Numbered from the stretch's first letter, positions 24,524 through 63,085 are shown. The stretch: 64,000 nt of DNA from Candidatus Hydrogenedentota bacterium (GCA_012730045.1 JAAYBR010000002.1:28911-92910); one strand, 5' to 3'. Notes: a model not told the origin generated them from the sequence alone. Numbers and translations are program-made.

Positions 24524-24534
24524 GACCGAACCTC

Positions 24535-26729: not shown

Positions 26730-26749
26730 AAATATTTATGAGGGGGCCG

Positions 26750-48100: not shown

Positions 48101-51100
48101 CTCCAGACCGAAGGGGTCGAGCCACTGGTCGAAGCCGCTGAGCATGCCCACACCGATGTCCGTGTAGCCGCCCAGGGTCACGTTGTCCAGGTCCACGTTG
48201 CCCGGGTTGTACACGTCCACGCTCGGGATGTAGAAGAGGTCCGTCTGGTTGCGGTAGGGCGAGTCGGACTCGTAGGTGATGACCAGGTCATGCACGTCCA
48301 CGCCCACGCGGATAGGCTTGGCCGTTGCCTGGTTGAAGGTGCGCTGCGGCCACCAGGGCTCATATTCGCCCCAGCGCGGGTCATTCTGCCACGGGTAGAG
48401 CGCCGTCGCGCCGAGCTTGACCCCCTGCGCGGGGATCATGCTGTCCACAAACACACCGCCCTCCCAGTTGCCGGACTCGGGGTTGAAGCGCCGCGGCTCG
48501 ATGAAGGCCCGGAAATCCGCGCCGTAGGTGATGCCCTGGCCGTCCCCCGGGGCGAGGGAAATGTCGCGGAAGCCGCTGTCGGTACGCACCACCACAAAGT
48601 AGTCCGGGGACGCCTCGGCGCCGAAATTGCCCATGGGGCCTTCGGCGTAGTTGTCCGGGGTCTTCTCGAGAAATCCCTCTGTAAATCCCTTGTCATAGGC
48701 GCCGTAGTTGCCGAGCTTGCGGGTGCCGCCCCACAGGCGCAGGGAAATCTTCCACCACGGGTCTCCGCCTCCCGGCGGCAGCGGGATGTACTCCCAAGTC
48801 GGCATGAGCTCCACGCTGGAGGAGGCGTTCGCGAGCATCGGGTAATCGCCGGCGAACGTGAGCCCGCCGATGGCATTCGGCGTGGGCGCGTCAAAGACAC
48901 CGTTGTTGTTGGTGTCGTGCCACACCCAGGTGCCGTTGTAGGTCAGCTCGCGGCCGAACACCTCCTCGTTGTAGAGCGGAAGCCCCCAAAGCTGTTCGGT
49001 GATGTCCTCCAGACCCGTCCGCGGGTCGAAGCCGCCGTTGCCGGGCGCACCGTAGGGGTCGCCGCCGATGTCGGTCAGGATGACGTTGACCTCGCGGAGC
49101 TGCGCCGCGTTTTTCTCGGAAATGTCGCGTGTAATCTCCGTGTCGGCGAAATGCACCGAGTTGGTGGAGTGAGCGTTGATCCCGAGGACGGACGACCAGG
49201 AGTCCACGCCCAGGAGCTTGCGCATCTGGAGAAACTCGCCCGCCACCACGTCAAGAAGCTGGTCCGGCTTGTTCCAACGCGGACGGGAATACTCCGCCAT
49301 GGGGGTGTACAGGAAATTCGGGTGACTCCAGGCGTCATGGAAAATGGGGGCCTGCCGCCCGGAGGGGGAACCCACATAGTCGTAGACCGTGAAGGAAGAG
49401 CTGTAAAACTGCTTGTCCTCCAGAATCTCGCCATCCCAGAAGTTCGGGGAGTAACTGTCGGTGGGCAGCCCCTCCTCGTCCACCGGGTAGGTTCCCGTGC
49501 GCGGGTCAACCATCACCGCGTCCAGCACCTCGACGCCCATGGTGAGCTGGCTGCGCCAGGTGGCGGAGGAGCGCACGGCCACGATGTACGAGTTGCCGTC
49601 CGGCCGGAAGTCCTCGTTTACCTCGCCTGCAGGCACGTCAAACTGCGGACGCGCCGCCGTTCCGTTGCCGATAAAGTCGAGCTCGTAGACGATGCCGGAG
49701 TACTGCTGGAGCCCGGTGATTTCGCCCACGGGGGCGCCCAGATTGTCCCAGGTGAACATCAGCTCGTCGTATTGGGAGTCAAGGATGCCGTTGAGCGGAC
49801 CAAGCACCTCCTCGGCCTCCTCACCGGCCTTGTTCTCGATGAACAGGCCGAACTCGAGCAGGTCCGTGAAATAGGGCGCGCCCATGTTGAGGTAATTCAG
49901 GTCGTCGTTGTTCCGGCTGTCCGGGCGAACCCAGTACGTCAGGGACTTCAGCTTGCGCGGCGCGAAGTTGTCGTTCTCCTCCTCGCTTTCCCCGTAGCTC
50001 ATGGTGAACCGGAAGAGGGGCACCCAGTCGGAGAGGGGCAGCACGGACTCCCGGTCCGCGACCAGGGTGGAGAAGGAGATGTCGGCCGTCGGCTCGTCCG
50101 TCTGGCCCTCACCCTCGCCCTCGCCCTCCCCCTCGCCTTCCCCTTCACCCTCGCCCTCAGTGCCGCACCCGATGCACTCGAGCACCTCGATGTAGTTCTC
50201 CCGGGTGAACTGGCGGGTGACCAGCGCGCCGCCGTTGCAGTTGTCACGGTAAGTCACCGTCAGAACCACGTCGTAGATGCCGGGCGCGGTGTAGCGGTGC
50301 ACGGGGTTGCGCTCGGTGGACGACTGGCCGTCGCCGAAGTTCCAGTACCAGCCCACGGGCGCGAAACAGCTGTCGCCCACGGAGAGGTCCGTGAAGGTCA
50401 CCGCCAGGGCGGGCACGGGGTTCGCGGGCGTGATGTTGCCGCGCGTCGGCGTCGCCGAGAAGTCCACATACGGCGTGGCCAGTATCTCGATGTACTCGGT
50501 CTTGGTGACCGTGGTCGTCACGCCGTACTGGTTGGTCACCGCGACCGACACGGTGTAGAAGCCCGTCGCGGTGTAGATGTGGACGGGGTTGATCTCGTTC
50601 GAGGCCTGCCCGTCGCCGAAGCTCCACGCCACGCTGGCGGCCTGGTTTGCCCCGATCAGCGTGAAGGCCACGCTGCCGTTGACGATCTGCCGGCGCGGGG
50701 TGCCGGTGAAGTCCAGGGTTGCCGGCGTGGTCGCCGTGACCGTCTGGGTGAGGTTGGCCACCGGGGTGTTGGTGCGGATCCAGTTGCGCAGGGCGGCGAA
50801 GTCGGGGCCGTCCTGGCTGCGGTCCACATCGGTCCGCGGAATCACGCTCATCTTGTCCTTGTCGAAGCCCCAGTAGCGCACGGGCCGCGGCCGCTGGAAG
50901 AGGGTGATGTACCCGACGGCGCGGCTTCCCCAGGGGAACTCGGAGAAGAGGTCAAACTCATCGGCGTTCTGCCCGGGAAGGGGCGGCGAGGCCAGGCTGA
51001 CCGTGAAGTTGTCCGGGTCGGGCTCGGTGGGGGTGTTCGGGCCCCAGGACACGATGGCGGCCTGGAACTGGTCGCCCTGGTTCATGGCCGTGGCGGCGCG

Positions 51101-54100
51101 CACCACGACGAAGAAGTCGGGGCCGAAGTCCGCGTCTGTGGGCGCGGCGCCGGGGGTCATGGGCACCCACTGGCGGTTGCGCGGCTGCGAGACGTAGGGG
51201 GTCGCGTCGCGGCCGATGAAGCTGTCCGTGCCGGGGGAGGCGAAGGTCATCTTGACCTGGTACTCGGGCTCGCCGCCGACCGCGCCGATCAGCACGGGCG
51301 GGTTGTCGAGGCGGACCGGAAGGTCAATGTACTCCGTGACATTCCCCTGGGCGTCGCGGACCGGCGGGTCATACACGCCGTTGCGGTTGCCGGGGTGGAA
51401 GTCGTTGTCGCGGTAAACCGAAACGCCGCTGAAGAGCCCGTTGATCGGGTCCTCATGGTCCAGGGGCACGAGGTCGCTCACCAGGTTGAAGGCGCCGGTG
51501 CGCGCGACGTCGTAGAACTCGACCACAAGCTGCTCGAGGAAGCTCGGGTCCTTGACAACGTACCAGGCCCCGTCGGTGCGCGGGGCGCCGGCGCGCAGCG
51601 TGAGGGTGCGCCCGCCGACCGCGGTGATCTCATAGGCCTCGACGCGCGGGTGGCTCCCCTGCGAAAGGCCGATAAGGTACAGCCCGACCGCGTTGGCGGT
51701 CCAGGCCCCGGAGGCGTAATAGGACGCGTTGGCGCCGGTGATGTCGGCCTCCGTCGGGATGAAGCTGGAGGCGGTGGTCTGCGCGCCCGTACCCTGGCCG
51801 CGCGCCACGATGTTCTCCGGCCGGTTCACCGAGCAGTCCAGGCCGAGCACGGCCGACTCCGCGCCGCCGGGCTGGATGGAGCCCGTGGACGTGTCAAAGA
51901 CCAGCGTGCGCACGTTGACGGGCAGCATGTCGTGCCCGTAATAGTCCTGCAGCGGGCTTTCCTCGATGTTGTGCTTGGTCATGGTGTCCACCACGTCGTA
52001 GGCGCGCGGCATCATCTGCAGCCCCGCGAGCTTGCGGGCGTCGGGCGTGCGCGTGGGCAGGTTGGCCGGCACCACGGCGCGGAACTCCATGAAGGCCTTG
52101 GCCTGCTGGCTGGTCCGCACGACCACGAACAGGTCGGCGCCCGGGCTGCCCGCGGCGATATTGAGGGCCTTCTCGTCGGCGGCCTTCAACGCCAAGTCCA
52201 CGAAGGAGGGGGCGTCAAGCCAGTAGTCCGGCCAGTCCGCAGCATCCTTGGCGCGGTCCCCGGCGGACTTGTAGAGGCTCACTCCGGTCTCGGTGTCCTT
52301 GTAGGGGACATCCCACTTTGTGCGCGGGATCAGCGTGAGCACCCAGGCGCGGTCGGACAGGCCGTCCCACGCCGCAAGCTCCGCCGCGCTGAGCCGCGCG
52401 ACGTCGGCGGGCACCAGCGGATCGCCGTCAAACACGACACCGTCGCCGCTGAGGTCGTCCGGCAGGTAGTCGTCGTCGAGGTCTATGACCTCCGGGGCCT
52501 GCGCCCACGACAGGCTGCCCTCCGCCAGCGGCACGATCCGGTCGGTGAACGACGGGGAGGTCACCCCGCTCGTGAGGAAGGGGCCGTCGAAGACACCGTT
52601 GTTGTTGCTGTCCTCGTAGAGCAGGACGCCGGAGGTGAAGAGGGCGCCGTCCACGTCCAGGCCGGAGAGCTGGCCGGGCGTGAAGTCGGGGCCCCAGAAC
52701 GCGACCGTGGCGTTGCTGAGGCTGATGGGGCTGTAGGCGTTGACTGCGGGGTCGTCGGTGCCGGCCAGGTTGAACCCGAGCATGGCCGTGGGCAGGGTGT
52801 CCACGCCGATGTACTGCTTGAGCAGGCGGGCCGCCCACGCGTTGGAGGCGTTCAGCAGCCGCTCGGGCCGCCAGTCCTCCAGCCGCGGATACACGCTCCG
52901 GGGAAGGGTGTCCTCCACGATCATCCAGCGACCGCGTGAAACGGCGTTGCCGATGCCCACGCCGACACCGTAGGGGTAGTCCGGAACACTCAGATCGACG
53001 GGGGCCTGCGAGCGGTCAAGATAAGCGCCGTGGCCCTCGCGCAGGGTGAGCGAGTTTCCGCTGTTGCTGAGGATGTAGTACCGGCCGCCGTAGTTGTCCA
53101 CCAGCCATTTTCCCGCGAGGTCCCCCGCGAGGGGGCCGAGGTGCGGGCCGTTCACGACGAACACATAGACGTCGTCGGCGTAGGTGGCCTCCGCCCCGCT
53201 GGCGCCGGTGAGGTTGTACGGCACGTTGGCCTGGGCGCCCTCGCTGGCCAGGTAACAGAGGCTGGTGTCGCCCCAATTAATGATCGTCTGGCCGCCCTGG
53301 TACCCGGCCCAGGTGGAGTAGCGCGGAAGCGTGGGCTGGGACGGCGGATCGGGCCAGAAGGTGGACCGCGGCTCGGCCAGCTCCTCATCCAGACCGTCCC
53401 CCTCCAGCTTGAAGGGCACCGTCTCAAAGGCGTAGTGGGTCATGAGCCACTCGCCCGCGCCCCGGAAGGAGTCGAAATAGTCGGGGAACATGAACGGGTT
53501 GTGCCGGTGGAAGAAACGCAGCTCGCCCATTCCGTAGAAATCGACGAGGTCCTTCGCCTGGAAAGCGTCCCAGATGTACCGGGGGGGGCCCGACGGATAG
53601 TATTCATAACCGGGGACGTCAATGTCGTCGGTGTTAAAGAACGCCGGATCGGTCCACAGGGAGATGGCGGTGCGGCCGTTCCATTCGGCATCCAAAAAAA
53701 TTTGACGCGCTAACCCGGTGACCGGGTCAATATAACCGAAAAAGTCGAACGCGTCCAGGGACTGGCCCGCCATGGCGGGGGTCACCTTGGCCCAGCGGTT
53801 GTCCGTGGCGTAGGTCAGCACGAGATCGTGCACCTCGGCGCCGCAGCGCACCGCCTTGACCGTGTCCCGGTTGTGGCTGCGCTCGGTCCACCACCCGTAC
53901 TCGCGCTTGATCACGTAGGAGCACGGGAAGTCGGAGGGATCGCAGACGAGGTCGTTCGCGGCGGCGTTCTGCCACAACACGCCAAACGTCTCGCCGACCG
54001 TGAGCTTCTCCCGGGCCTTGTCCGGCCACGGATTAATTGGCGTGCCGTTAATCGTGATGCCGGCCAGGTATTCGGCCATCACCTTGTACTGGATGTTGAA

Positions 54101-56398
54101 GAGAATGCCGCCGTCCCAGGAGCCCCCCTCGGTGCCCTTGGGGTTCCACCGGCGTGGCTGCACGAAACAGCGGGTGTCGGCGCCCAGTTTCATCCCGACG
54201 CCGTCGCCCTCCACGCCCGACACGTCGCGGAAACCGCTGTCGGCGCGCATCACCACGAAGTAATCCATTTTGGGCGGATAGTTCATGAGGAGGTTGTAGT
54301 TCGCAATGGCGTCCGGCGTCCCCTCCATGGCGCCCGTGGGCGTGTCGCCGGGGTTGCGCCGGCGGCCGCCGGAGAATCCGAGCCCGATGGTCCACCACGG
54401 GTCGCCGCCGCCCGGCGGGAAGGGCTCGTAGCCCCACTGCTGCATGCCGGGAAGTATGGGCTGGGTCTCGCCAAACGTGCCCGGAAGATACGGATACATG
54501 GGGTAGTCGGTGAACTGGATGCCGAGCGTGCCGCGGGGCGCCGGGGGGTCAAACTGGCCGTTGCCGTTGGTGTCGTGCCACAGCCAGAGGCCGTTGTACG
54601 CGAAGTCCTCGCCGGTGGCGTTCTCCGCGTCCACCCTGCCCACGGTCGTGAATTTTTCCAGCCTCTCGCTCGGGTCGCCGAGGCCGCCGTTGCCGGGGGG
54701 GCCGAAGGGGTCGCCGCCCACGTCCGTGATGGCCATGTGCAGCGACGTGGGCTGGGGGATTCCGCCGACGCCCGGCAGGCCGTGGGCGTCTATGCCCAGC
54801 AGGGGCACCCAGGACTCCACGGAGAAGAGCTGGCGCATGTCCACCGCCTCGCCGATGAGGGCCTGCAGGGAGGCCGTGGCCAGGTCCCAGCGCGGGCGCA
54901 CAAACTGCTCCAGGGGGGTGTAGAGCGAAGGCTGGTCGTTCCAGCTGTTGTAGCGCATGGGAAGGACGCCGCCGCGCACGTCGAACACGCCGAAACTCGA
55001 CGAGTACGCCTCCTCGGGCGCCAGGGTTTCCCCCTTGAAGAAGTCCGGGGAGAAGGTGTCCATCGGAACCCCTTCATCGTCCAGGGGCATCGTCTGCATC
55101 CGCACCTCGCCCGTGGTGAGGTCAACGTAATACGGCTGCATGCAAACGTTGGTCAACTCCATGCTGAGGGAGGTGCCGGTCTGCCAGGCGGACGACAGCC
55201 GCACGGCCACGACATAGTTGTTGCCCGTCGGCGAGGTCGTGATCCACTCGCCCTCGGGGCGGAAGGGGCCGGGCGCCGTGGACCCGAAAATTTCGCTGCC
55301 CGGATTGTTGACGGCCACCGGGAAGTCCGGGTCCGTGCTGTCGTAAATGAAGCTGAGGTTGTAGACGTTGTCGTTGATGTTGTACTTGAGCCCGTTGGGG
55401 GCGACGGTGTTTCCGCTAAAGGCCGGCATGTCGTACGGCCAGCCGTGGCTGTCCCATTCATACAGGGGTTCGGAATAGGCCACCACCTCGGGAATGTCCG
55501 GCAAACCCACCTGCACGTTGTCCCCGGAAGGCAGGCCGTCGCCGTCCAGGTTGAAGACCTGATGGACGGAGAAAATCAGATAGTCGCTCTCCTGGGGGGA
55601 GATGTTGTTGATGTAGCCGCGGTCTGTCATGGAGACCGGGTCTCTCTTCAGGCGGAAACTCAGGCGTGTCAGGGCGCGGGGCGCGGGCTCATTCTCGTTG
55701 CTCCACTTGAGGGTGAATCCGAAAAGGGGCACCCAGTCGTTCAGCGGAACCAGGCCGGCGGCGTCGGTGATGTACTCCTCCGCGGTGAAGTCCGCCGTGG
55801 CGACCTCCGCGACGGTGATGGCCTCCACGAGGTCCACGCGGCATATCTGGGTCGTGCTGTCGGGCATGATGATGACCGCCTCAACGATCACATCGTAGTC
55901 GCCGCCGTTGGCGATGCTCCCCGTCACGGTGGGCAGGTCGGCGACGGTGCCTGCGGGGGTCTGGTTCACGGCGTTGGCGTTGGGGTTGGGCTTGGGCTCG
56001 GTCCGGTCGGCAAACCAGGCGCGGTAGAGGTCCACGTCCTCCTTGACATACCAGTAGCGCGCGCGCTCAATGCGGACGGGGATGCGGCTGGGCAGTGAGA
56101 ACGCCCGGGCGAGCAGCTGAAAACTGCCGCCGGGTGTCACGGGGTTCGGCGACACGCTCAGCTCAACGCTCACCTGGTAGGGCGGGAGGAGGCAGTCAAT
56201 CTGGCCGGGCGCGAGGCTGGCCGAGACCAGGCCCGCCAGAGCCGCGTCGCTCCCCGCAAAGGCGACCCGCATGGGTTCCGCCCGCCGGGCGTCCTGGGAT
56301 AGAACGCCCGGTGCGCGTGCCACCAGGAACCCCGCCAGTCCCACAAGCACAAGACCCCACAGGGCCACTCTGATTGTCGCGCGAAGTCGTGTGTTCAC
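45191..56398 (-). CDS. giant secreted surface protein (about 3735 aa): two roughly 1.3-1.8-kaa tandem modules separated by a PKD-domain pair and (GE)9 linker, C-terminal IPT/TIG-like domains, Cys plus hydrophobic helix plus RRRR anchor
   Basis: GTG start with signal peptide VNTRLRATIRVALWGLVLVGLAGFLVARAPG. PKD motifs WSFGDGQ…NPVHIY…GFYTV and WNFGDGQ…NPVHRY…GIYDV. C-terminus …GCAPGTASGTSWADAAVMLAAAGLLALAGRRRRAAGRG. The internal duplication is visible at DNA level. Confidence 0.8.
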   Translation of the reverse strand: MNTRLRATIRVALWGLVLVGLAGFLVARAPGVLSQDARRAEPMRVAFAGSDAALAGLVSASLAPGQIDCLLPPYQVSVELSVSPNPVTPGGSFQLLARAFSLPSRIPVRIERARYWYVKEDVDLYRAWFADRTEPKPNPNANAVNQTPAGTVADLPTVTGSIANGGDYDVIVEAVIIMPDSTTQICRVDLVEAITVAEVATADFTAEEYITDAAGLVPLNDWVPLFGFTLKWSNENEPAPRALTRLSFRLKRDPVSMTDRGYINNISPQESDYLIFSVHQVFNLDGDGLPSGDNVQVGLPDIPEVVAYSEPLYEWDSHGWPYDMPAFSGNTVAPNGLKYNINDNVYNLSFIYDSTDPDFPVAVNNPGSEIFGSTAPGPFRPEGEWITTSPTGNNYVVAVRLSSAWQTGTSLSMELTNVCMQPYYVDLTTGEVRMQTMPLDDEGVPMDTFSPDFFKGETLAPEEAYSSSFGVFDVRGGVLPMRYNSWNDQPSLYTPLEQFVRPRWDLATASLQALIGEAVDMRQLFSVESWVPLLGIDAHGLPGVGGIPQPTSLHMAITDVGGDPFGPPGNGGLGDPSERLEKFTTVGRVDAENATGEDFAYNGLWLWHDTNGNGQFDPPAPRGTLGIQFTDYPMYPYLPGTFGETQPILPGMQQWGYEPFPPGGGDPWWTIGLGFSGGRRRNPGDTPTGAMEGTPDAIANYNLLMNYPPKMDYFVVMRADSGFRDVSGVEGDGVGMKLGADTRCFVQPRRWNPKGTEGGSWDGGILFNIQYKVMAEYLAGITINGTPINPWPDKAREKLTVGETFGVLWQNAAANDLVCDPSDFPCSYVIKREYGWWTERSHNRDTVKAVRCGAEVHDLVLTYATDNRWAKVTPAMAGQSLDAFDFFGYIDPVTGLARQIFLDAEWNGRTAISLWTDPAFFNTDDIDVPGYEYYPSGPPRYIWDAFQAKDLVDFYGMGELRFFHRHNPFMFPDYFDSFRGAGEWLMTHYAFETVPFKLEGDGLDEELAEPRSTFWPDPPSQPTLPRYSTWAGYQGGQTIINWGDTSLCYLASEGAQANVPYNLTGASGAEATYADDVYVFVVNGPHLGPLAGDLAGKWLVDNYGGRYYILSNSGNSLTLREGHGAYLDRSQAPVDLSVPDYPYGVGVGIGNAVSRGRWMIVEDTLPRSVYPRLEDWRPERLLNASNAWAARLLKQYIGVDTLPTAMLGFNLAGTDDPAVNAYSPISLSNATVAFWGPDFTPGQLSGLDVDGALFTSGVLLYEDSNNNGVFDGPFLTSGVTSPSFTDRIVPLAEGSLSWAQAPEVIDLDDDYLPDDLSGDGVVFDGDPLVPADVARLSAAELAAWDGLSDRAWVLTLIPRTKWDVPYKDTETGVSLYKSAGDRAKDAADWPDYWLDAPSFVDLALKAADEKALNIAAGSPGADLFVVVRTSQQAKAFMEFRAVVPANLPTRTPDARKLAGLQMMPRAYDVVDTMTKHNIEESPLQDYYGHDMLPVNVRTLVFDTSTGSIQPGGAESAVLGLDCSVNRPENIVARGQGTGAQTTASSFIPTEADITGANASYYASGAWTANAVGLYLIGLSQGSHPRVEAYEITAVGGRTLTLRAGAPRTDGAWYVVKDPSFLEQLVVEFYDVARTGAFNLVSDLVPLDHEDPINGLFSGVSVYRDNDFHPGNRNGVYDPPVRDAQGNVTEYIDLPVRLDNPPVLIGAVGGEPEYQVKMTFASPGTDSFIGRDATPYVSQPRNRQWVPMTPGAAPTDADFGPDFFVVVRAATAMNQGDQFQAAIVSWGPNTPTEPDPDNFTVSLASPPLPGQNADEFDLFSEFPWGSRAVGYITLFQRPRPVRYWGFDKDKMSVIPRTDVDRSQDGPDFAALRNWIRTNTPVANLTQTVTATTPATLDFTGTPRRQIVNGSVAFTLIGANQAASVAWSFGDGQASNEINPVHIYTATGFYTVSVAVTNQYGVTTTVTKTEYIEILATPYVDFSATPTRGNITPANPVPALAVTFTDLSVGDSCFAPVGWYWNFGDGQSSTERNPVHRYTAPGIYDVVLTVTYRDNCNGGALVTRQFTRENYIEVLECIGCGTEGEGEGEGEGEGEGEGEGQTDEPTADISFSTLVADRESVLPLSDWVPLFRFTMSYGESEEENDNFAPRKLKSLTYWVRPDSRNNDDLNYLNMGAPYFTDLLEFGLFIENKAGEEAEEVLGPLNGILDSQYDELMFTWDNLGAPVGEITGLQQYSGIVYELDFIGNGTAARPQFDVPAGEVNEDFRPDGNSYIVAVRSSATWRSQLTMGVEVLDAVMVDPRTGTYPVDEEGLPTDSYSPNFWDGEILEDKQFYSSSFTVYDYVGSPSGRQAPIFHDAWSHPNFLYTPMAEYSRPRWNKPDQLLDVVAGEFLQMRKLLGVDSWSSVLGINAHSTNSVHFADTEITRDISEKNAAQLREVNVILTDIGGDPYGAPGNGGFDPRTGLEDITEQLWGLPLYNEEVFGRELTYNGTWVWHDTNNNGVFDAPTPNAIGGLTFAGDYPMLANASSSVELMPTWEYIPLPPGGGDPWWKISLRLWGGTRKLGNYGAYDKGFTEGFLEKTPDNYAEGPMGNFGAEASPDYFVVVRTDSGFRDISLAPGDGQGITYGADFRAFIEPRRFNPESGNWEGGVFVDSMIPAQGVKLGATALYPWQNDPRWGEYEPWWPQRTFNQATAKPIRVGVDVHDLVITYESDSPYRNQTDLFYIPSVDVYNPGNVDLDNVTLGGYTDIGVGMLSGFDQWLDPFGLEQIKFENGHTVDVRDWRLFGARVVDFGLFQVNFLYDDTGRWGQFAYETVPFFSPLSTLGDAPPVGPRSSAYPVPPQQPALPRYSTWSAELLPGEYPRASQWRSANAGARLLAQKVDGNSAHMPMLGMNLVASSDPIVTSTGEPVAVSQITVAFWGPDFTPAMLRTLDPDTNDNQSLDSGVLLWEDADQNGIFLNTQDLNNYAGSGAALPLLDRIVPVTNVKWASQPELVDLDGDGRADDMDGNGIVDDADRAWVLTLYPRSNWTVPRLDGYEFDFEIPNDNKAAGAGPVSTALQVNGVQQAAPGAKALDPEVLQPGDDLFISISTSDSVARFSKIRAVIPANLPTRPDNQRRGGIQFFPSVNTSGTAFVKSSPDEDPVQDFYGHDMLEVNVPVRMVDLTNRNAKLNIGGEAVPVLGLDLATNRPGDILAAGNGGIGLVSGYRVPSAAWVPGALAGDWLVDSGYETYEILGNSANELTLRAGTPRNGAWRVVRDPSFLEELTVELYQNGANAIFNPLTDLLPLSRDQRISGVALYRDNDNHPENRNGYFDPGIDIPIQLDGPPRFTGQTADDIQVRFVFSTPGTDDQPLPREQQSRNRQWIQPTFGVSINDLDYGPDFFVVVRAAQGMQEGDSFRAGIVSWGPNTPTEPDPDTWANLPGEDRNDFRKFREFQWAQRGLGFVTFFRTPPAYYWMDGAKAGVRPDSSGFNWIRSHTMKKQLSGVLEARARVVGPTTIAIDSVSQAELPSQTLPGEPFRFVIYGQNFGTRPVVVMSGYDVVVTGATNTTISLSVSSRSDDPPVEPIVLLVRNTATGQEVSRSDLFSLSPGTPERSPKVLRVDPKRASRKKFPVTLYGEDLGDVQSAQVYFGKTLMPVIGGSPDGTRLVVGFPVGGMAQTGKMDVKVGNAAKNKEDILVDGFEYVNDDNRNKFLGYIGCAPGTASGTSWADAAVMLAAAGLLALAGRRRRAAGRG

Positions 56399-56793
56399 CA
56401 CGCCACTCTCCCAGAAAGGCGTTCCCGCGCGCCGCCGCACCTGCGGTGCGCGCCGGGGGCCGCCAATGCTTCGTAACACCCTGCCGGCACCCGCCGCCGC
56501 CGAAAAACCCGGCTGCACGGCGGCGCGCACGCGCCCGGAACACAAATCCCGGACACGTCCGCTGGCATCCTTTCGTCTGCCGACCGACCTGTCATGGCAC
56601 ATTTTTCCCGTTGTCCACTCCGTTTTTATATCACAGCCGGGCCAAAGTGTCAATAGAGAAGTTGCCTGCAATTCCAAATGATGCTTGAATTTAGGTTGCC
56701 GAATGCCACGGAGCATATCGGCAGATTTCGCATTTCAGTGTAAAGTAATTCCTGTCCGCCGCGCAAAACTTCGCGCGCCCTCGCCGTAACCGC

Positions 56794-58638
56794 CTACGAT
56801 GAGGGCACTTCCTCCAACCCCTCAAGGGCGTCCCGCAGGGCGTCCACCGCGTCCTGACTCACCCGAAACACCCCCGCCTTGCCCTCCAGGGTCGCAAACC
56901 GCTCCCGGGAATTTTCCGGCGAGACGCCGCCGATGCGCAGGGGACCGATGCGCTCGCCCGCCGCGGGCGGCGCCACGGGGGCCATGCGGACATAGAGGGT
57001 GAAGACGGGCTTGTCCAGCCCGTAGACGGACAGGTCGCGCGGCGCCTCCGGGGCCGCGAGCCCCGTGATGCGCAGGGGGCTGACCGCCGCGAGCAGGGCC
57101 TCGGCGTCCGACTGGTTCTTCAGTCGGAGGGTCTCGGGCCGCGTCACGACCCACTGGCCGTGGCGCCTCTCCAGAACCGCGCCCAGGTTCTCGAACTGGA
57201 ACTCCAGCACCTCCGCATCCGGCCGGTTGAAGCGCAGCAGCTCCATGGAGCGGAATTTGTCCGCTGTCAGCAGCAGCGCGTCCACGGCCACGCCGCGCAG
57301 CGCGACCACGCCGCCGCTGTCCTGGGTGGCGTACCACAGAGACGCGTTGTCCGGGCTGGGCCAGAGGGAGAGCGACGCGGTTGCGCCGTCGTCGTGGGAC
57401 AGGGTGATGGAGACCTGCGGGGCGACGCCGCCGGGCAGGGTCTCTGGGGCAACGTCGAGCGGCTCGCCCCGGCTCTCCTTGAGCACGGCGAGGAACCCGG
57501 ACACGGCGAACTGGTTGACCTCCGGCAGGGCCGGCGCCGTGAGGCTCCAGGCCCCGTCCGCGCCGCGTTCGAGCACAAGCGTCTCCTCCCCCCGCCGGTA
57601 CTCGACCTTTTTGAGCTCGCTCAGGCGGCGGGTGATCAGGCGCGTCTCGCGCCAGGCATCGGGCTTGCGCGGCAGGAGCATCATGATCTGTGCGTCCATC
57701 TGGAAGACGGCGCGCTGGCCCGCCACCTGGGCCCACACGCCCCCCTTCTCGCCGTCCACGGCGCCGAGAAGAATGTTCTGCGCGCGGCCGCTTTTGCCGT
57801 CCACCACCGTGATCCGCGCGGCCGCCGGGCTGAGGCCGTAGTCCGACAGGTTCTCCGGCGCGTCCACAAACTCGCGCCCGACGGCGAACTGCACCTCTTT
57901 GACCACCTCGTCAACCTTCTCCTGGTCGGCCATGGCGTCCAGCGGCGCTTCGAGGCGCCAGGGCTCGCCGGCGGCGGCGCGCCGCACGACGACCTCGGTG
58001 GACTCCTCGCCGACGGCGGGCTGGTCCTCCGGGGGGGCCGCGTCGGTGCCGGTCCAGATCCAGGCGAACCGGAATTCCAGAATGTCCGCCTCGCGGTCCT
58101 CGACCAGGAAGCGGTGGCGCAGCTCCTCCAGGGATCGGTTGACCTCGAAGAACTCGCGCGTGTCCGCGAGGAGGAGCGGCCCGCCGTTAAGGCGCGCGTA
58201 CCGGTGGCGCTGGGTGGGTTCCACATCGCCGAAGACCACGGTGGCGGGCGCCGCGTCCCCGGCCTCCACCGTGACCGTGAGGGCGGGCACGTCAAGGCCG
58301 TACTCCGCGGGGTCCGCCGGCGTCTCCGCCACGGTGCGCTGGCTGCGCAGGGTGGAGAGGTTGTCCGCCACGCGGTCCCACAGCATCTGCAGCGGGGGGA
58401 TGGTGTCGTTGGGCGCGGTGATGCGCCACGCGCCGTCCGCGCCGCGCTCGCCGGTCACGGCGGGCTGGCCGACCTGGGCCAGGGTCAGGCGGCGCACATC
58501 CTTCCCCTGAAAGTCGAAGAGCCGCGCGGCCTCGGCCGCCCGCTCCGCCGTGCGGCGGCCGCGTTGGCGCATGCCCCAGTAGACGCCGCTGAGCAGGGCC
58601 AGCGCGAGCAGGAGCAGGAGCGTGGAGCGGAACTTCAT
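56794..58638 (-). CDS. DUF4340-domain protein (GldG-associated periplasmic protein)
   Basis: Signal/TM MKFRSTLLLLLALALLSGVYWG. Repeated DUF4340-like modules (…W.L..P…D…V……L..L……). Start overlaps the gldG-like stop (ATGA). Confidence 0.65.
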   Translation of the reverse strand: MKFRSTLLLLLALALLSGVYWGMRQRGRRTAERAAEAARLFDFQGKDVRRLTLAQVGQPAVTGERGADGAWRITAPNDTIPPLQMLWDRVADNLSTLRSQRTVAETPADPAEYGLDVPALTVTVEAGDAAPATVVFGDVEPTQRHRYARLNGGPLLLADTREFFEVNRSLEELRHRFLVEDREADILEFRFAWIWTGTDAAPPEDQPAVGEESTEVVVRRAAAGEPWRLEAPLDAMADQEKVDEVVKEVQFAVGREFVDAPENLSDYGLSPAAARITVVDGKSGRAQNILLGAVDGEKGGVWAQVAGQRAVFQMDAQIMMLLPRKPDAWRETRLITRRLSELKKVEYRRGEETLVLERGADGAWSLTAPALPEVNQFAVSGFLAVLKESRGEPLDVAPETLPGGVAPQVSITLSHDDGATASLSLWPSPDNASLWYATQDSGGVVALRGVAVDALLLTADKFRSMELLRFNRPDAEVLEFQFENLGAVLERRHGQWVVTRPETLRLKNQSDAEALLAAVSPLRITGLAAPEAPRDLSVYGLDKPVFTLYVRMAPVAPPAAGERIGPLRIGGVSPENSRERFATLEGKAGVFRVSQDAVDALRDALEGLEEVPSS

Positions 58639-60305
58639 TGGTGCCTCCCGCGCAGGGCGCGCGCCAGCAGGCCCGCCGCGGCCACGGCCTGCACGAGGCA
58701 CATGACGGCGACCCAGGCCGCGGCCCGGCGCTGCGTGTCCGTGAGGATCAGGGGGGCGGCCTCGGCCCCCGTCGGGCGGATGGCGATCAGCTCCTCGCTC
58801 TCGTTCATCCACGCAAAGGTGTTCATGAGGAAGTTCAGGTGGCCGGGCACGGTGACCTGCCCGTTCGTGGCGAAGTCCGCGTCGCCCACCACGACCACGC
58901 GGGCGTCCCCCCTGCCCTTCGGGCTCTTCTCCTGGTCCACCCGCACCTGGACGGCCGCGGCCACGGGGATCGGACCCTTCGCGTCCGCCTCGTCCCGCTT
59001 GGCCTGGCCCGTCTCCAGCAGTTTCGCCGTGTCGGTCTCGGCCCAGAAATCCGGCGTGGTCCGCAGCAGCTCCACGCCCGACACGCCCGCGGGGGGCTTT
59101 TCCGCCAGCCGCACGCTGCGCAGCGCCTGCAGGAGCATGGTCTGGTCGAAGCCCCGGGTGACGGGATGGTCCTTGTGGTAGCAGCCCTGGTATTCCATGA
59201 ACCCGGCGTCCACGCCCTCGAACGGCTTCCCGTCATAGGAGAGCTCGGCCTGCCACTTGTTCGAGGAGGCGTCGGTGATGACCAGGTCGCCGCCGACGGT
59301 GATCCCGAAGCGGCGCGCCAGCCAGGGCCGCAGCTGCTCCCCGGACACCGCGCCCTGCGGGGCGGCGCGCCACGGGTCCATCAGCACCAGCAGGCGGCCG
59401 CCGGCGTCCACAAAGGCGTCCAACGCCTCGATCTCCAGGGGGTGCAGGTCCGTCTGCGGATTGGCAATCACCAGCACGTCCACGTCCTTGGGAATCTCCG
59501 GCTGGGCGAGCTTGATGTTCAGGCGGTCCAGGGCGAAGGACTCCCCCGTAAGAAGCTGCACCAGCCCCGACAGGCCGCGCTCGTCCTGCCCCGCCGGGTC
59601 GCGCTCCTCGTGCCCCCCAAGGAAGGAGACCTTCGGCTCCGTGTCGCGCAGGACGTTGATGAGGGCGTTGGTGAATTCGCGCTCCTCGAGGCGCGGGCTG
59701 CCGCCCGAGAGGGTGATCACCCGCTGGCGGTCGCCCGCGCGCACGACCACGGTGCCCTGCGTGGACGCGTGGGTGATCTTCAGCTCCTCCACCCGCCCGC
59801 GCTCCACCGTCGGGTCGAGCACCTCCACCTGGATCTGGTCGGTGAGTTTCCGGCACTGTTCCAGAAAGCGCAGCGTCTTGTCGCGCGCGATGACCACCAG
59901 CTCGTCGTCCACGTCGAGGAAGAAACAGATGACCTCGACGGGCTGCGTGATGTTGCGCAGCACCTGCGCGGTGAGCGGCGACAGGTCGCGCCGCCCCTCC
60001 TTCGTCAGGTCCCATTTCGCGTCCCAGGACTGCACAAAGAGGTAGGCCACCACGCAGATGCCCAGAAAGGCAGCCGTGGACACGGCGGCGTTGAGGCCGC
60101 CGAGCGAGCGCTCCTCCGCCGCCCCGCGCACAAAGTAGGAGAACAGGGTGAGCCCGGCCCACGCCAGCCCGAGCGCCGCGGACAGCCCCAGCGGGGCTGT
60201 CACGGGGAGGGAGAACGGGTCGGACACCCAGAAGACCGCGTTGAGCGCCGCCACCGCGCACAGGATGGAGAACACGCCCGCCAGCTGCCGCGCCCGCCGC
60301 ATCAT
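58635..60305 (-). CDS. GldG-like ABC-transporter auxiliary protein (ABC_transp_aux family), N- and C-terminal TM anchors
   Basis: Start MMRRARQLAGVFSILCAVAAL…; large periplasmic region; C-terminal TM …AAWVAVMCLVQAVAAAGLLA. Overlaps the permease stop (ATGA). Confidence 0.7.
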   Translation of the reverse strand: MMRRARQLAGVFSILCAVAALNAVFWVSDPFSLPVTAPLGLSAALGLAWAGLTLFSYFVRGAAEERSLGGLNAAVSTAAFLGICVVAYLFVQSWDAKWDLTKEGRRDLSPLTAQVLRNITQPVEVICFFLDVDDELVVIARDKTLRFLEQCRKLTDQIQVEVLDPTVERGRVEELKITHASTQGTVVVRAGDRQRVITLSGGSPRLEEREFTNALINVLRDTEPKVSFLGGHEERDPAGQDERGLSGLVQLLTGESFALDRLNIKLAQPEIPKDVDVLVIANPQTDLHPLEIEALDAFVDAGGRLLVLMDPWRAAPQGAVSGEQLRPWLARRFGITVGGDLVITDASSNKWQAELSYDGKPFEGVDAGFMEYQGCYHKDHPVTRGFDQTMLLQALRSVRLAEKPPAGVSGVELLRTTPDFWAETDTAKLLETGQAKRDEADAKGPIPVAAAVQVRVDQEKSPKGRGDARVVVVGDADFATNGQVTVPGHLNFLMNTFAWMNESEELIAIRPTGAEAAPLILTDTQRRAAAWVAVMCLVQAVAAAGLLARALRGRHQ

Positions 60306-61135
60306 TTGCCCCTCCAGTGGCGGCTTTCCAGCGCGCGGAAAGTCAGGAAAAGGAAGAACGCCGAAACCAGCAGATAGTACGCGATGTCCGGGGGCGACAC
60401 GACGCCCAGGGCCATGTCCCGCGCGTGGTTGTCCAGCGCAAGCTCCATCACCAGCCCGCGGAACAGGGCGTAGCCGCCGCCGAAAGCCGTGCGCACCGTC
60501 TCGGGCCACGCCGCGGGCGCCGGGTTGGCCGCGGGCAGCTTCTCGCCCACGTTGCCCAGGATGTACAGCAGGAGGAACCCGCCGAAGGTGACAATGCCCG
60601 CCGTGATCTGGCTGCGCGCCAGGGCGGACACGAACAGGCCGATGGCGAGGAAGGCCATGCCCATGAGCCACACGGTGCACACGCCGAAGATGATCACCGC
60701 GGGCTCCAGCGCGACAAACCGGGACACGACCAGCAGGTGCACCGAGACAATGAGCATGAGCACGAGCAGGATGCCCAGCGACGCGAGGTATTTTCCGAAG
60801 ATGATCTCCCGGTCGCGCAGGGGCCAGGTCAGCAGCAGCTCCATGGTGCCCCGGTGCCGCTCCTCGGCCAGCAGCCGCATGGTGATCAGCGGCGACAGGA
60901 ACATGATCCAGATTCCCGTGAACACCAGATAGGGGCTCAGGAAGGTCTCCGCGAAGTCCGGCACGGTGGAGTAGCCGTAGGAGGTCGGGTCCACGGACAT
61001 CTTGGCGTAGGTGAACAGGGACAGCGCGAAGGCCAGCCCGGAAATGAGGGCGAACACCCCCGTCACGATGTACCCGACGGGCGTCAGGAAAAAGGCGGAA
61101 AACTCGCGGCGGCAGACGGCCCAGGTGTTTCTCAT
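60302..61135 (-). CDS. ABC-2 family permease (GldF-like)
   Basis: Six-TM ABC-2 pattern, …RELLAEERHRGTMELLLT… motif. Confidence 0.8.
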   Translation of the reverse strand: MRNTWAVCRREFSAFFLTPVGYIVTGVFALISGLAFALSLFTYAKMSVDPTSYGYSTVPDFAETFLSPYLVFTGIWIMFLSPLITMRLLAEERHRGTMELLLTWPLRDREIIFGKYLASLGILLVLMLIVSVHLLVVSRFVALEPAVIIFGVCTVWLMGMAFLAIGLFVSALARSQITAGIVTFGGFLLLYILGNVGEKLPAANPAPAAWPETVRTAFGGGYALFRGLVMELALDNHARDMALGVVSPPDIAYYLLVSAFFLFLTFRALESRHWRGK

Positions 61136-61890
61136 GCCGCGCCCCCCCCGGACGCGCCGCGCTCCTCCGACGCGATCACCCGCATGAAGACCTCCTCCAG
61201 GGGCCGCTTCCCCTCACCGGTCAGGTTGGCCAGGCTGTCCTGCACCACCACGCGCCCCCGGTGGATGATGATCACCCGGGAGCAGGTCATGGTCACCTCG
61301 GGGAGGATGTGCGTGCTGAGGAGGATCGTGTGCTCGCGCCCCAGTTCCTTGATCATGTTGCGTATCTCGACGATCTGGCCCGGGTCCAGCCCCACCGTCG
61401 GCTCGTCGAAAACGAGCACCGGCGGGCTCCCCACCAGCGCCTGCGCCAGCCCCACGCGCTGACGGTAGCCCTTCGACAGGTTCCCCGTCAGCCGCTTCGC
61501 CATGTGCGTCAGGCCGCAGCGCTCCATCACCCGGTCCGCCTCCGCCCGCCGCGCCGAACGCGGCACCCCCTTCACCACCGCCACATGGCGCAGGAACGAC
61601 TCCACCACCATCTCCTCGTACAGCGGCACGCTCTCCGGCAGGTAGCCCACCCGCCGCTTCACCTCCAGCGGCTGGTCGTGCACCTCGAACCCCGCCACCC
61701 GCGCGCGCCCCCGCGTCGCCGGGGTGAACCCCGTCAGGATGCGCATGGAGGTGCTTTTCCCCGCGCCGTTGGGCCCGAGAAACCCCACGATCTCCCCCTT
61801 GCCCACCTGGAAGGAGACGTCCTCCACGGCGGGAATCGCGCCGTAATACTTGGTCAGGCCCTCAGCCTCAATCATGATTTCCTGGCTCAT
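61132..61890 (-). CDS. ABC transporter ATP-binding protein (GldA-like)
   Basis: Walker A GPNGAGKST, signature LSKGYRQR, Walker B LVFDEP. Starts at MSQEIMIEAEGL. Confidence 0.85.
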   Translation of the reverse strand: MSQEIMIEAEGLTKYYGAIPAVEDVSFQVGKGEIVGFLGPNGAGKSTSMRILTGFTPATRGRARVAGFEVHDQPLEVKRRVGYLPESVPLYEEMVVESFLRHVAVVKGVPRSARRAEADRVMERCGLTHMAKRLTGNLSKGYRQRVGLAQALVGSPPVLVFDEPTVGLDPGQIVEIRNMIKELGREHTILLSTHILPEVTMTCSRVIIIHRGRVVVQDSLANLTGEGKRPLEEVFMRVIASEERGASGGGAA

Positions 61891-62103
61891 GCGGCCATTA
61901 TCCCTCTCAGGCGGTTTATGCCGGAGCCACCCCAAATACCGGCGGCGGCATACGACATATTGAACGCGTCTTGACCGGAACACATCATATTGTGCGCCGA
62001 ACCGCACCCCAAACGCAACCTGTGGGGCGGGTCCGTTACCAAGAAAATGCGCCCGGCCGGAGTCCTTCCGACAAGAGATTGCCGCGCCGGCCGGGGCGAC
62101 CGG

Positions 62104-62244
62104 CTCGCAACGACGCGGAGATTTCCGTCATGGCGAGCAAAGCGACGCCATCTCGTTCTCGCGCAGGCCAGGGCAGCCGTCTCGCAACAACGCGGAGATT
62201 TCCGTCATGGCGAGCGAAGCGACGCCATCTCGCTCCCGCGCCGG
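62104..62244. repeat. two tandem about 76-bp units of palindromic repeat family 2 (…ctcgcaacgacgcggagatttccgtcatggcgagcgaagcgacgccatctcg…)
   Basis: Direct tandem duplication read from the sequence; related copy at 20549..20608. Confidence 0.5.
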
Positions 62245-62299
62245 CCTAAAAAAGGAAACCGCCCGGACGTGAACACGCCGGGCGGCAGAATGATGATAA

Positions 62300-63085
62300 T
62301 CAGTCCCGGTCCTCCGGGGCCAGGCCGGAAACCTCCTCCAACCCCGCCGGATCGGAGGAATCCAACACCTCCATCTCGGGTCCCTTCTTCTCCTCGGCCG
62401 CCGGGGCGGGCCGCTCCACCACCACGGTGTCGTCCAGCGTGAGGGCGGACAGCGGGGGGCGCGCCAGCGCCACGGCCATGCGGTTGGTCAGGGAGCCCTT
62501 GTCGGACTCCACCTCGTCGCGGATCTTCTGGGCCGTGCTGTTGGCGTCCACATGCACGCCCACCACGTTCAGCTTCACCTCGACCATGTCCTCCAGGCCG
62601 AAGGCCGTGCTCACGGTGTGGGCGATGCAGTCGGACACCACGGCCGACGTGCGGCGCAGGCCGGCGTCGGCGCAGTTCTGGAGCACCACCGCGGCGTGCA
62701 CATTAATCTTGCGGGCCGTCCGGTCCGGCGCGACGCGCACCTTGATGCGGCGGACCTCCGGCAGCGCGCCGATGACCTTGGCCAGGGTCTGCTGGATGGG
62801 GCGCAGCTCGATGGAGACATTGCCCCGCTCGGTGCGGAAAGTGATCGCCGCGCCCGCTCGGCGCTCCGGCAGCAGCCCTATCAGACCCAGCAGCACCAGC
62901 ACCCCGCCGATGGCCCCCACCCACGCGGCCACGGGCACCCCGGCCACCGCGCCCGTGTCCGTGATCCGGTTCAGCAGTTCCACCGACCGCATGACCCAGT
63001 CGCCCGGGTCGGCGGCCACCACAATGACGCCCGCCCCGGCCACGACCACCACAAAGCTCAGCAGTTTGAACAGCAGGGTCTTCAT
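62300..63085 (-). CDS. Asp23/Gls24-family (alkaline shock protein 23-like) envelope-associated protein with N-terminal membrane anchor
   Basis: Asp23 domain pattern (…VHVDANSTAQKIRDEV…), N-terminal TM segments, acidic C-terminus. Confidence 0.65.
   Translation of the reverse strand: MKTLLFKLLSFVVVVAGAGVIVVAADPGDWVMRSVELLNRITDTGAVAGVPVAAWVGAIGGVLVLLGLIGLLPERRAGAAITFRTERGNVSIELRPIQQTLAKVIGALPEVRRIKVRVAPDRTARKINVHAAVVLQNCADAGLRRTSAVVSDCIAHTVSTAFGLEDMVEVKLNVVGVHVDANSTAQKIRDEVESDKGSLTNRMAVALARPPLSALTLDDTVVVERPAPAAEEKKGPEMEVLDSSDPAGLEEVSGLAPEDRD

Follow-up and report, generated by a model that had tools for sequence, protein, structure and literature searches.

The locus described here raises the question of whether an ABC transporter operon resembling the gliding genes gldA, gldF and gldG serves the giant surface protein that is encoded next to it. 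The original prediction was that the operon and the giant gene form a functional module for export, anchoring or surface movement of the giant protein in a non-Bacteroidetes, high-GC organism. The host is indeed outside Bacteroidota: it is an uncultured member of Candidatus Hydrogenedentota, represented by a MAG, with a GC content of ~68%. The whole 64-kb stretch of DNA that was analysed is referred to below as the window.

Gene layout and protein families of the ABC operon

Four minus-strand genes (61890-56794) make up the operon. Their identities and positions, as originally assigned, were confirmed by the ORFs and by Pfam matches far above the gathering scores. The features of this part of the window are as follows:

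62248..62283, minus strand: terminator-like hairpin GCCCGGCGT..ACGTCCGGGC, then GGTTTCCTTTTTT (read from the sequence)
61132..61890, minus strand: ABC ATPase, GldA-like, 252 aa (Pfam ABC_tran)
60302..61135, minus strand: ABC-2 permease, GldF/NosY-like, 277 aa, six predicted TM helices (Pfam, hydropathy)
58635..60305, minus strand: GldG-like auxiliary protein (ABC_transp_aux), 556 aa (Pfam ABC_transp_aux, hydropathy)
56794..58638, minus strand: DUF4340 protein, 614 aa (Pfam DUF4340)

The ATGA-type overlaps reported for these genes are present as 4-nt overlaps at all three gene boundaries (...CATGAG, ...AATGAT and ...AATGAA). The ATG of the permease gene overlaps the stop codon of the ATPase gene, and the same holds for the GldG-like gene with the permease gene and for the DUF4340 gene with the GldG-like gene. 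Public gene calls for identical metagenome contigs gave the same four ORF lengths. The hairpin at 62248..62283, located after the upstream AmaP-like gene, delimits the ABC transcription unit on its 5′ side. It was missed by the terminator scan because it does not satisfy the T-run rule of the scan.

The ATPase contains intact Walker A (GPNGAGKST), signature (LSKGYRQR), Walker B (VLVFDEP) and H-loop (STH) motifs and matched Pfam ABC_tran with 106.1 bits (gathering score 25). The nr protein NLV39714.1 (247 aa) belongs to the same 90% cluster, and no accession for the exact 252-aa sequence was present among the NCBI entries listed. The permease matched ABC2_membrane_2 with 68.5 bits (gathering score 27.2), and its matches in the Pfam scan were confined to ABC2_membrane families. 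In the GldG-like protein, three N-terminal and one C-terminal predicted TM helices anchor both ends in the inner membrane and surround a ~435-aa periplasmic ABC_transp_aux/DUF4350 domain (residues ~92-528); the protein matched ABC_transp_aux with 102 bits (gathering score 34.7), as well as DUF4350 and DUF7088. The DUF4340 protein (164.7 bits against Pfam DUF4340, gathering score 25) has an N-terminal membrane-anchor helix and, after it, a tandem array of four alpha/beta modules of ~140 aa each, predicted to be periplasmic. A search of the PDB by sequence returned no relative of the permease, the GldG-like protein or the DUF4340 protein. NCBI already names proteins of this operon as 'GldG family' (NLV39712.1, 'GldG family protein') and 'DUF4340'.

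The DUF4340 family is large, with 28,673 cluster representatives at E<=1e-3. The order ABC-permease-GldG-DUF4340 is retained in Hydrogenedentota orthologues and also, well outside this phylum, in at least 12 distant metagenome loci, at 21-32% DUF4340 identity. No giant homologue was detected in these distant loci, several of which have short or missing downstream sequence. In SAR11, DUF4340 is conserved beside ABC genes, a complex has been predicted, and the DUF4340 protein (OG1814) is predicted to be a transporter subunit (bioRxiv preprint 10.64898/2025.12.11.693642). One DUF4340 protein of Verrucomicrobium spinosum is essential (PMC12283558). The widespread module, exemplified by SAR11 OG1814 and its ABC neighbours, has the same Pfam composition (PF09822, PF14238) and gene order as the window operon, which clearly belongs to this ABC ATPase/ABC-2/ABC_transp_aux/DUF4340 module. 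Two differences were observed. The window DUF4340 protein is ~614 aa long and contains four modules; in other members of the family, as many as nine matched stretches occur in ~1400 aa. Of the loci examined, moreover, only those of this Hydrogenedentota clade have the giant gene after the module.

Comparison with Gld and other ABC systems

The operon had been assigned the GldA/F/G architecture. This stood at the level of family likeness, as the GldA, GldF and GldG models were the best NCBIfam matches, but all three equivalog cut-offs were missed widely: 275.2 bits against 402.6 for the ATPase (TIGR03522), 103.2 against 288.5 for the permease (TIGR03518) and 47.6 against 389.85 for the GldG-like protein (TIGR03521). 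The plan shared with F. johnsoniae GldA/GldF/GldG consists of an LSKGYRQR ATPase, a six-helix ABC-2 permease and an ABC_transp_aux accessory protein. In both systems, the permease and accessory genes are adjacent, and the accessory protein is anchored at both ends and carries a large periplasmic domain. The 3+1 predicted TM helices of the window protein are a difference from F. johnsoniae GldG. Unlike in F. johnsoniae, the ATPase gene lies in the same operon, and a fourth, translationally coupled gene, DUF4340, is present; DUF4340 is absent from the gld/spr gliding gene lists given in the reviews consulted.

True orthologues of GldA, GldF and GldG powering an SprB-like giant adhesin would be in keeping with the best matches, with the signature LSKGYRQR, which is the same as that quoted for F. 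johnsoniae GldA, and with the giant repetitive surface protein adjoining the operon. We consider such a Bacteroidota-type gliding system very improbable. In addition to the missed cut-offs and the absence of DUF4340 from the gliding gene lists, no other gld, spr, por or T9SS gene was found among the scanned ORFs of the window, the giant protein is devoid of a T9SS C-terminal sorting domain, and in relatives the giant gene adjoins a type II, not a type IX, secretion cluster. The gliding reading does not survive this evidence.

The solved structures nearest to the ATPase are ABCA7/A1/A4 (E~1e-60), followed by NosF (1e-45) and LptB (1e-33); ABCA3 was also found. The ABCA lipid exporters and NosFY (type V ABC/ABC-2 fold), its closest solved relatives, are likewise built from a membrane domain of the ABC-2 type together with extracytoplasmic domains or partners of large size. 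Unlike NosFY, the window operon has no NosD/NosL or copper-enzyme context. That the window transporter shares a mechanism with ABCA and NosFY is something that we only infer.

Our preferred explanation, held with somewhat better than even confidence, is that the operon encodes an ABC machine of the envelope that works autonomously on a substrate other than protein, is separate from the secretion and transcription of the giant protein and is linked to it at most indirectly. Translation of the four genes is coupled via the ATGA overlaps, and they would yield one self-contained machine made stoichiometrically. An ATPase dimer would power a permease dimer, and on the periplasmic side the GldG-like and DUF4340 proteins may take up the substrate or guide it. 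This substrate would be a non-protein component of the envelope, for instance a lipid, a glycolipid or a glycan-linked molecule, because the architecture is of the ABC-2 type and the solved relatives of the ATPase are ABCA lipid exporters, NosF and LptB. Any link to the giant protein would be indirect and lineage-specific; for example, the surface protein may depend on a component of the envelope that the machine supplies.

The giant protein and its 831-aa partner

Two further genes follow the operon on the same strand, as originally described:

45191..56398, minus strand: giant surface protein, 3735 aa, GTG start (translation, Pfam PKD)
42618..45113, minus strand: 831-aa partner protein (homologues 3′ of giant gene)

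The giant gene is separated from the operon by 395 nt, and the partner gene starts 78 nt past its end. The giant protein (PKD/TIG) is composed of two tandem ~1700-aa units, 32-38% identical, with a pair of PKD domains and a (GE)n linker between them. Its N-terminus contains a hydrophobic signal/anchor helix, as judged from hydropathy, and its C-terminus has the form ..IGCAPG..TM..RRRR. The protein is thus predicted to be a precursor of the Sec type whose C-terminus forms a membrane-anchor/sorting tail. It matched neither a T9SS model nor any other known model of a sorting domain (NCBIfam, E<=0.01; last 149 aa, E<=10), nor did it match the CFI-box model NF041770. The family contains 38 homologues, and the named ones are nearly all from Hydrogenedentota. 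Single-unit homologues end in a CFI-box motif. All ABC-linked giants are of the duplicated, two-unit form, and the ..GC..TM..RRR tail was seen in both of those with complete C-termini (window and P0002).

The N-terminus of the partner protein (NLV39709.1 in nr, 'hypothetical protein') resembles a lipobox (LLAGC); farther along the chain come a CFI-box motif, a TM helix and an acidic tail. Against NF041770 (CFI_box_CTERM, cut-off 40), it scored 41 bits as a fragment and 39.2 bits as the whole 895-aa ORF; its CFI-box is internal and followed by the TM helix and a ~200-aa tail, whereas the model calls for a C-terminal position. A ~800-aa CFI-box protein of this kind is a constant companion of the giant, lying directly 3′ of it in 8/8 loci (window, L004, L006, L008, L009, L058, L059 and L060). 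In five of these eight, it is followed by a cluster of type II secretion genes (C, D, E, F, G); no T2SS gene was found within the window.

The GlyGly-CTERM/rhombosortase cargo of Vibrio comprises surface proteins that are secreted by the type II route and also bear a tripartite sorting signal at the C-terminus. The giant protein resembles it in its Sec-type N-terminus and in the order of C-terminal motif, TM helix and basic tail, and in relatives its gene adjoins a T2SS cluster. Such cargo appears to be the closest analogue of the giant protein itself. Unlike GlyGly-CTERM, the tails (..GC.. here, CFI-box in single-unit relatives) fit no characterised sortase system, and no sorting enzyme for the giant tail was identified.

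The sole support for the ABC transporter being the secretion route of the giant, in the manner of type I secretion of giant RTX adhesins, is that it adjoins a giant repetitive protein. This route is contradicted by the domain architecture and is hardly credible, even less so than the gliding system. The permease is a 277-aa ABC-2 protein and not an ABC_membrane/C39 fusion, no T1SS-type domain is present in the operon, and no membrane-fusion or TolC-like gene was found in the operon or among the ORFs of the window. The giant combines an N-terminal signal/anchor with a C-terminal TM helix and Arg tail, and has no T1SS C-terminal signal. The T2SS cluster beside it in relatives also speaks against this route.

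Transcription and linkage of the giant gene

The AT-rich promoter-like sequence that had been noticed between the operon and the giant gene is present. The gap contains the following features:

56725..56750, minus strand: conserved upstream element, AATTACTTTACACTGAAATGCGAAAT in the window and ..TTGACAAATAATGCGAAA.. in relatives (by eye)
56625..56653, minus strand: predicted giant promoter, TTGACA, 17-nt spacer, TATAAA (motif search)
56399..56624, minus strand: giant 5′ leader, GC-rich, ~225 nt, ending in GGGAGA-N7-GTG (SD and start)

The promoter has an extended -10 TG and is preceded by CTTCTCTA and AATTGCAGG. It was the sole match in the window at <=2 mismatches, with 0 expected by chance. 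Of the 20 locus records with a giant, 19 contained the motif TATTGACA-N14-TGnTATAA (<=1 mismatch) once each, on the strand of the giant and ~190-620 nt upstream of its predicted or called start, with or without an ABC operon upstream; the L060 giant locus carries it at two mismatches only. No copy was found elsewhere in the 60 loci. The upstream element, picked out by eye between the genes at ABC-linked loci, is located just past the DUF4340 stop codon, ~100 nt upstream of the promoter, and similar strings were seen by eye 5′ of the giants in L006 and L009, both without the ABC operon. Leader length and SD/GTG context are alike in eight related loci. RNAalifold pointed to possible hairpins and to base-pairing of the SD with a U-rich segment, though covariation was weak. 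These features indicate that the giant gene is transcribed as a unit of its own, from a strong promoter and with a long leader. An independent promoter and a terminator in this gap had been named as evidence against the module; the promoter was found (56653-56625) and the terminator was not. As none was found between the DUF4340 gene and the giant regulatory region, read-through co-transcription may occur.

Conservation of the gene order, proposed as a check, was found within one Hydrogenedentota clade and is not general. The loci with the giant gene 3′ of the DUF4340 gene are the window group, L057, L003/12/13/15, L014/L022 and L008. Adjacency on the same strand, with a constant spacer of ~310-400 nt, was seen in about nine lineages covering 38-90% DUF4340 identity. 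The operon occurs without the giant in four related lineages (L021, L055, L056, L017), and the giant without a nearby ABC operon in six (L004, L006, L009, L058, L059, L060). Upstream of the giant-linked operons, three unrelated flanks were observed (AmaP-like gene, Vsr, 428-aa gene). Since the junction was kept while the upstream neighbour changed at least three times, its retention seems to exceed what neutral synteny easily gives, a hint that linkage is under selection. An NJ tree of permease, GldG and DUF4340 placed the giant-free L056+L021 pair as the sister group of the giant-linked core clade (bootstrap 100%) and the giant-linked L008 outside both. The adjacency thus appears to have arisen in one Hydrogenedentota lineage, with one loss or more since then; the alternative is two gains. 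As the association reflects one ancestral event, or two at most, it amounts to about one independent observation.

A dedicated coupling, in which the ABC/GldG-like/DUF4340 machine was recruited in this clade to serve the giant in a role other than export, is the strongest competitor, although we regard it as rather unlikely. The machine might supply or remodel an envelope molecule to which the C-terminal tail of the giant attaches, or ATP might be used to position or move the giant in the envelope; either would parallel the need of the Bacteroidota adhesin machinery for GldAFG. The constant spacer, the downstream junction unchanged across three flanks, the two-unit form and tail of the ABC-linked giants, the failure to find a terminator between the units and the requirement of GldJ and GldK for GldAFG all favour coupling. 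Against it stand the few events behind the association, the sister lineage L056+L021, which lost the junction and retained the operon, and the single-unit giants and L060, the latter with the same GC-type tail, which have no adjacent operon. Moreover, the giant promoter is present in every genomic context, and the module is ubiquitous also among organisms that lack giants of this kind.

With respect to the autonomous machine that we favour, the conserved promoter of the giant and its other constant partners make a working link to the operon only possible. The functional-module interpretation is therefore partly supported. Export of the giant by the operon is unlikely, given the giant's own promoter and other neighbours, the non-general linkage, the missed Gld cut-offs, the absence of T1SS parts from an ABC-2 system and the Sec-type N-terminus. 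Anchoring or surface movement would be a conceivable role. An indirect effect of an ABC machine on a surface protein has a precedent: in Bacteroidota, GldAFG stabilises GldJ and GldK, which are proteins of the gliding/T9SS system, and acts in this indirect way on the machinery of giant adhesins (PMC9127263, PMC10202324).

Composition and affiliation of the ABC module

The original prediction placed a four-gene ABC module on the minus strand, followed on that strand by a giant surface protein gene and a gene for an 831-aa protein. ORF and Pfam analysis recovered this arrangement, with the module at 61890-56794, the giant after a 395-nt gap, and then the 831-aa gene.

Features of the module and of the genes that follow it
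61132-61890, minus strand: ABC ATPase, 252 aa (ORF and Pfam)
60302-61135, minus strand: ABC-2 permease, 277 aa (ORF and Pfam)
58635-60305, minus strand: GldG-like protein, 556 aa (ORF and Pfam)
56794-58638, minus strand: DUF4340 protein, 614 aa (ORF and Pfam)
56653-56625, minus strand: giant promoter, TTGACA-17 nt-TATAAA with extended -10 TG (pattern search)
45191-56398, minus strand: giant, 3735 aa, with N-terminal hydrophobic helix, two PKD domains, C-terminal TM helix and RRRR tail
42618-45113, minus strand: partner, 831 aa, with LLAGC lipobox-like N-terminus, internal CFI-box, TM helix and acidic tail

The predicted boundaries and ATGA start/stop overlaps were borne out: the overlaps are genuine at every junction between the four module genes, and a purine-rich Shine-Dalgarno sequence lies 5' of each start codon. 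ENA gene calls on identical metagenome contigs gave the same lengths for the four ORFs. Pfam assignment was unambiguous for all four proteins, and the Walker A, signature, Walker B and H-loop motifs of the ATPase are intact. In this GC-rich window (~68%), the 5' boundary of the module is formed by a hairpin with a T-run after the upstream AmaP-like gene, plus a 409-nt spacer. The spacer contains a 77-nt tandem repeat (62082-62246; 2.1 copies, 87% matches), each copy with an inverted repeat ATGGCG..CGCCAT; no further copy was found elsewhere in the window.

For both the DUF4340 protein and the giant, close relatives are encoded in Candidatus Hydrogenedentota MAGs. In NCBI nr, the permease ('ABC transporter permease subunit'), GldG-like ('GldG family protein'), DUF4340 ('DUF4340 domain-containing protein') and 831-aa ('hypothetical protein') proteins are present on a 112-kb contig of such a MAG. 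The ATPase is represented by a 247-aa member of the same 90% cluster, named 'ATP-binding cassette domain-containing protein'. The gene identities are therefore already in databases.

The DUF4340 family is very large. A profile built from Hydrogenedentota orthologues of the DUF4340 protein matched 28,673 representatives of 50%-identity clusters at E<=1e-3 and 4,883 at E<=1e-30. A metagenome scan showed that the order ATPase-permease-GldG-like-DUF4340 recurs in many distant loci whose DUF4340 identity is 21-32%; none of these loci, several of which have little or no downstream sequence, yielded a giant homologue. In SAR11, DUF4340 genes are conserved beside ABC components and a four-protein complex has been predicted (preprint 10.64898/2025.12.11.693642), and one DUF4340 protein of Verrucomicrobium spinosum is essential (PMC12283558). 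The nearest solved relatives of the ATPase are ABCA lipid exporters (E~1e-60), followed by NosF and LptB; for the DUF4340 profile, the GldG-like protein and the permease, searching PDB sequences yielded nothing usable. From this we infer that the module is a putative exporter or mechanotransducer of the ABC-2 type, acting on a non-protein envelope component and having the two accessory proteins (GldG-like and DUF4340) on the periplasmic side. In the literature search, no functional study of DUF4340, PF09822/COG3225/'GldG-like' or CFI-box-CTERM emerged from outside Bacteroidota. Many members of the DUF4340 family are ~1000-1700 aa long with four to nine matched stretches (P0141, P0170 and P0177-P0216 among the representative-library matches); the number of DUF4340 modules thus varies widely, and presumably so does the length of the periplasmic part.

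The module had also been likened to GldA/F/G of Bacteroidetes gliding motility. The NCBIfam equivalog models for GldA, GldF and GldG were indeed the best matches to the ATPase, permease and GldG-like protein, the architecture is common to both systems, and the ABC signature quoted for F. johnsoniae GldA, LSKGYRQR, is identical to that of the window ATPase. However, the scores lay far below the curated cut-offs (275 vs 403 bits for GldA, 103 vs 289 for GldF and 48 vs 390 for GldG). Judged by these scores, the three proteins are family-level relatives of GldA/F/G, not orthologues. In Bacteroidota, GldAFG is described as having 'no clear function'; it is required for gliding, and indirectly to keep GldJ and GldK stable (PMC9127263, PMC10202324). 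A gliding system in the window is effectively excluded, given the missed cut-offs, the lack of other gliding or T9SS apparatus genes in the 64 kb, and the absence of a T9SS C-terminal domain from the giant.

Export of the giant by the ABC machine, another part of the original prediction, is unlikely on architecture: the permease is a small ABC-2 protein, the N-terminus of the giant is of Sec type and its C-terminus carries a motif followed by a TM helix and basic tail, and the window showed neither a membrane domain of T1SS type nor a fusion protein or an outer-membrane factor. T1SS-like export can be practically dismissed.

Linkage of the module and the giant in related loci

Gene order was compared in related metagenome and MAG loci. 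In five groups the giant lies directly 3' of the DUF4340 gene on the same strand, with a spacing of ~310-400 nt.

Loci with the ABC module (DUF4340 identity in brackets) and the gene that follows it
L001, L002, L010, L020 (window group): giant
L057 (59%): giant
L003, L012, L013, L015 (51-53%): giant
L014, L022 (49%): giant
L008 (38%): giant
L021 (42%): unrelated gene
L055 (42%): SASA
L056 (43%): unrelated gene
L017 (38%): convergent gene

The upstream flank of the operon varies between the giant-linked groups and comprises an AmaP-like gene, Vsr or an unrelated 428-aa gene. Since the upstream neighbours differ, the downstream junction has outlived rearrangement on the other side, which is the best evidence for the proposed linkage. 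A flank shared by L003 and L057 would weaken this argument; it was ruled out, as a test found no homology between their upstream neighbours.

A neighbour-joining tree of the permease, GldG-like and DUF4340 proteins (1414 columns) united the giant-linked core clade with 100% bootstrap. The giant-free pair L056 and L021 was its sister (100%), and the giant-linked L008 fell outside both (83%). According to this topology the junction is either ancestral and was lost once, or was gained twice. It thus represents about one independent evolutionary event and is dispensable. Moreover, in six loci with single-unit or variant giants (L004, L006, L009, L058, L059 and L060) no ABC operon was present within 10 kb upstream. 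Conservation of gene order, the check proposed with the prediction, holds within one Hydrogenedentota clade, at 38-59% DUF4340 identity beyond the window group, but four operons lack the giant and six giants lack the operon.

The flank upstream of the ABC operon (window 62300-63085 and 63350-63838, minus strand; L001 1222-4278) is specific to the window's species group. Its AmaP-like membrane-anchor protein scored 47.6 bits against a cut-off of 55, and beyond it lie carotenoid-type genes for a CrtO acyltransferase, a GT2 glycosyltransferase and an amine-oxidase/desaturase.

Promoter and leader of the giant gene

The promoter pattern of the giant matched once in the window, where chance would give none. 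Of the 20 locus records with a giant, 19 contain a single occurrence of the motif TATTGACA-N14-TGnTATAA (<=1 mismatch), each time on the strand of the giant and ~190-620 nt upstream of its start as predicted or called; in L060 the motif was matched only at 2 mismatches. It is kept whatever adjoins upstream (DUF4340, an SLT-TPR gene, a two-component system or other genes) and has no further match across the ~0.8 Mb of retrieved loci. A generic promoter/terminator scan, which demands T at position 6 of the -10 element, reported no promoter in the window because the site reads TATAAA. Its terminator-like matches lay solely inside coding sequence, and the 100 nt after the DUF4340 stop codon folded no more stably than shuffled sequence (z = +1.1), with no sign of an intrinsic terminator.

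Relatives share the leader of ~225 nt and the start context GGGAGA-N7-GTG, which settles the start of the giant at 56398 and not at the ATG 56272 of public gene calls. With its own conserved promoter and leader, the giant is an autonomous, probably strongly expressed transcription unit. A strong terminator together with an independent promoter at 56.4-56.8 kb had been named as evidence against the linkage; the promoter was found and the terminator was not, so read-through from the ABC operon is possible.

The leader (56399-56624, minus strand) was aligned with those of L010, L057, L003, L012, L013, L015 and L014; its length and partly its sequence are kept. RNAalifold predicted several hairpins, and also a U-rich segment (GYCGKTTTT) that pairs with the GGGAGA Shine-Dalgarno sequence. 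Double changes were present at 15 of 47 pairs, and the covariation term was small (-2.0 kcal/mol). The pairing could be a translational control element.

The giant protein, its neighbours and the meaning of the linkage

The giant contains an internally duplicated unit of ~1700 aa; its halves are 32-38% identical, and the two PKD domains plus a (GE)n linker join them. Single-unit relatives have ~1650-2000 aa. We detected 38 homologues, and the named ones are nearly all from Hydrogenedentota. Single-unit giants end in a CFI-box motif, and those of this clade in ..(F/I)GC(A/N)..TM..RRR (..IGCAPG..TM..RRRR in the window). The tail matched no NCBIfam sorting-domain model at E<=10, and the partner contains no Pfam domain.

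A homologue of the partner (~800 aa) lies directly downstream of the giant in all eight loci in which that side is visible (the window, L004, L006, L008, L009, L058, L059 and L060). It is followed in five of them (L006, L009, L058, L059 and L008, the last showing only a GspC-like gene at the contig end) by a type II secretion cluster (GspC-like, secretin, GspE, GspF, GspG). The partner and the T2SS cluster are thus more constant neighbours of the giant than the ABC operon. The giant, its CFI-box partner and the usual T2SS cluster look like a Hydrogenedentota-specific surface system. The tripartite C-terminal signal and the T2SS neighbourhood recall GlyGly-CTERM/rhombosortase cargo and may serve as a lead.

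On balance we favour, with some reservation, two separable systems, in which an annotated ABC module stands beside an independently promoted surface-protein cassette. A dedicated functional link between the module and the giant would agree with their adjacency, which is conserved in one lineage, and seems rather unlikely. Quite improbable, in our view, is a clade-specific recruitment of the ancient ABC-2/GldG-like/DUF4340 machine to service a duplicated, strongly expressed, T2SS-associated giant. For example, the machine might export an envelope lipid or glycan to which the ..GC..TM..RRR tail attaches. Such recruitment, if true, would parallel the GldAFG-adhesin relationship outside Bacteroidota and provide the first genetic handle on the function of DUF4340/GldG-like transporters.

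The finding is real but largely ordinary: it concerns a well-populated, already annotated ABC module. GldG-like/DUF4340 modules are very common, with cluster representatives numbering in the tens of thousands. A neighbourhood that is conserved and includes a defined cargo-like protein would offer a rare clue to their role. Here the clue is weak because it is a single lineage-specific juxtaposition of otherwise independent, separately promoted modules. The Hydrogenedentota-specific giant/partner/T2SS cassette, with its strikingly conserved promoter and leader, is a more solid by-product and a better entry than the ABC linkage to the cell surface of these uncultured bacteria.

Rfam and tRNA scans of the whole window found nothing. 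The stretch 24001-28000 has ~53% GC against a background of ~68% and may be a horizontally acquired island; the ORFs 23690-24523 and 24987-26729 have no Pfam matches and 26750-27415 is LpoB-like. A second large surface-type protein (6125-10948, minus strand; 1607 aa), unrelated to the giant, contains many immunoglobulin-like domains (Ig_3, I-set).
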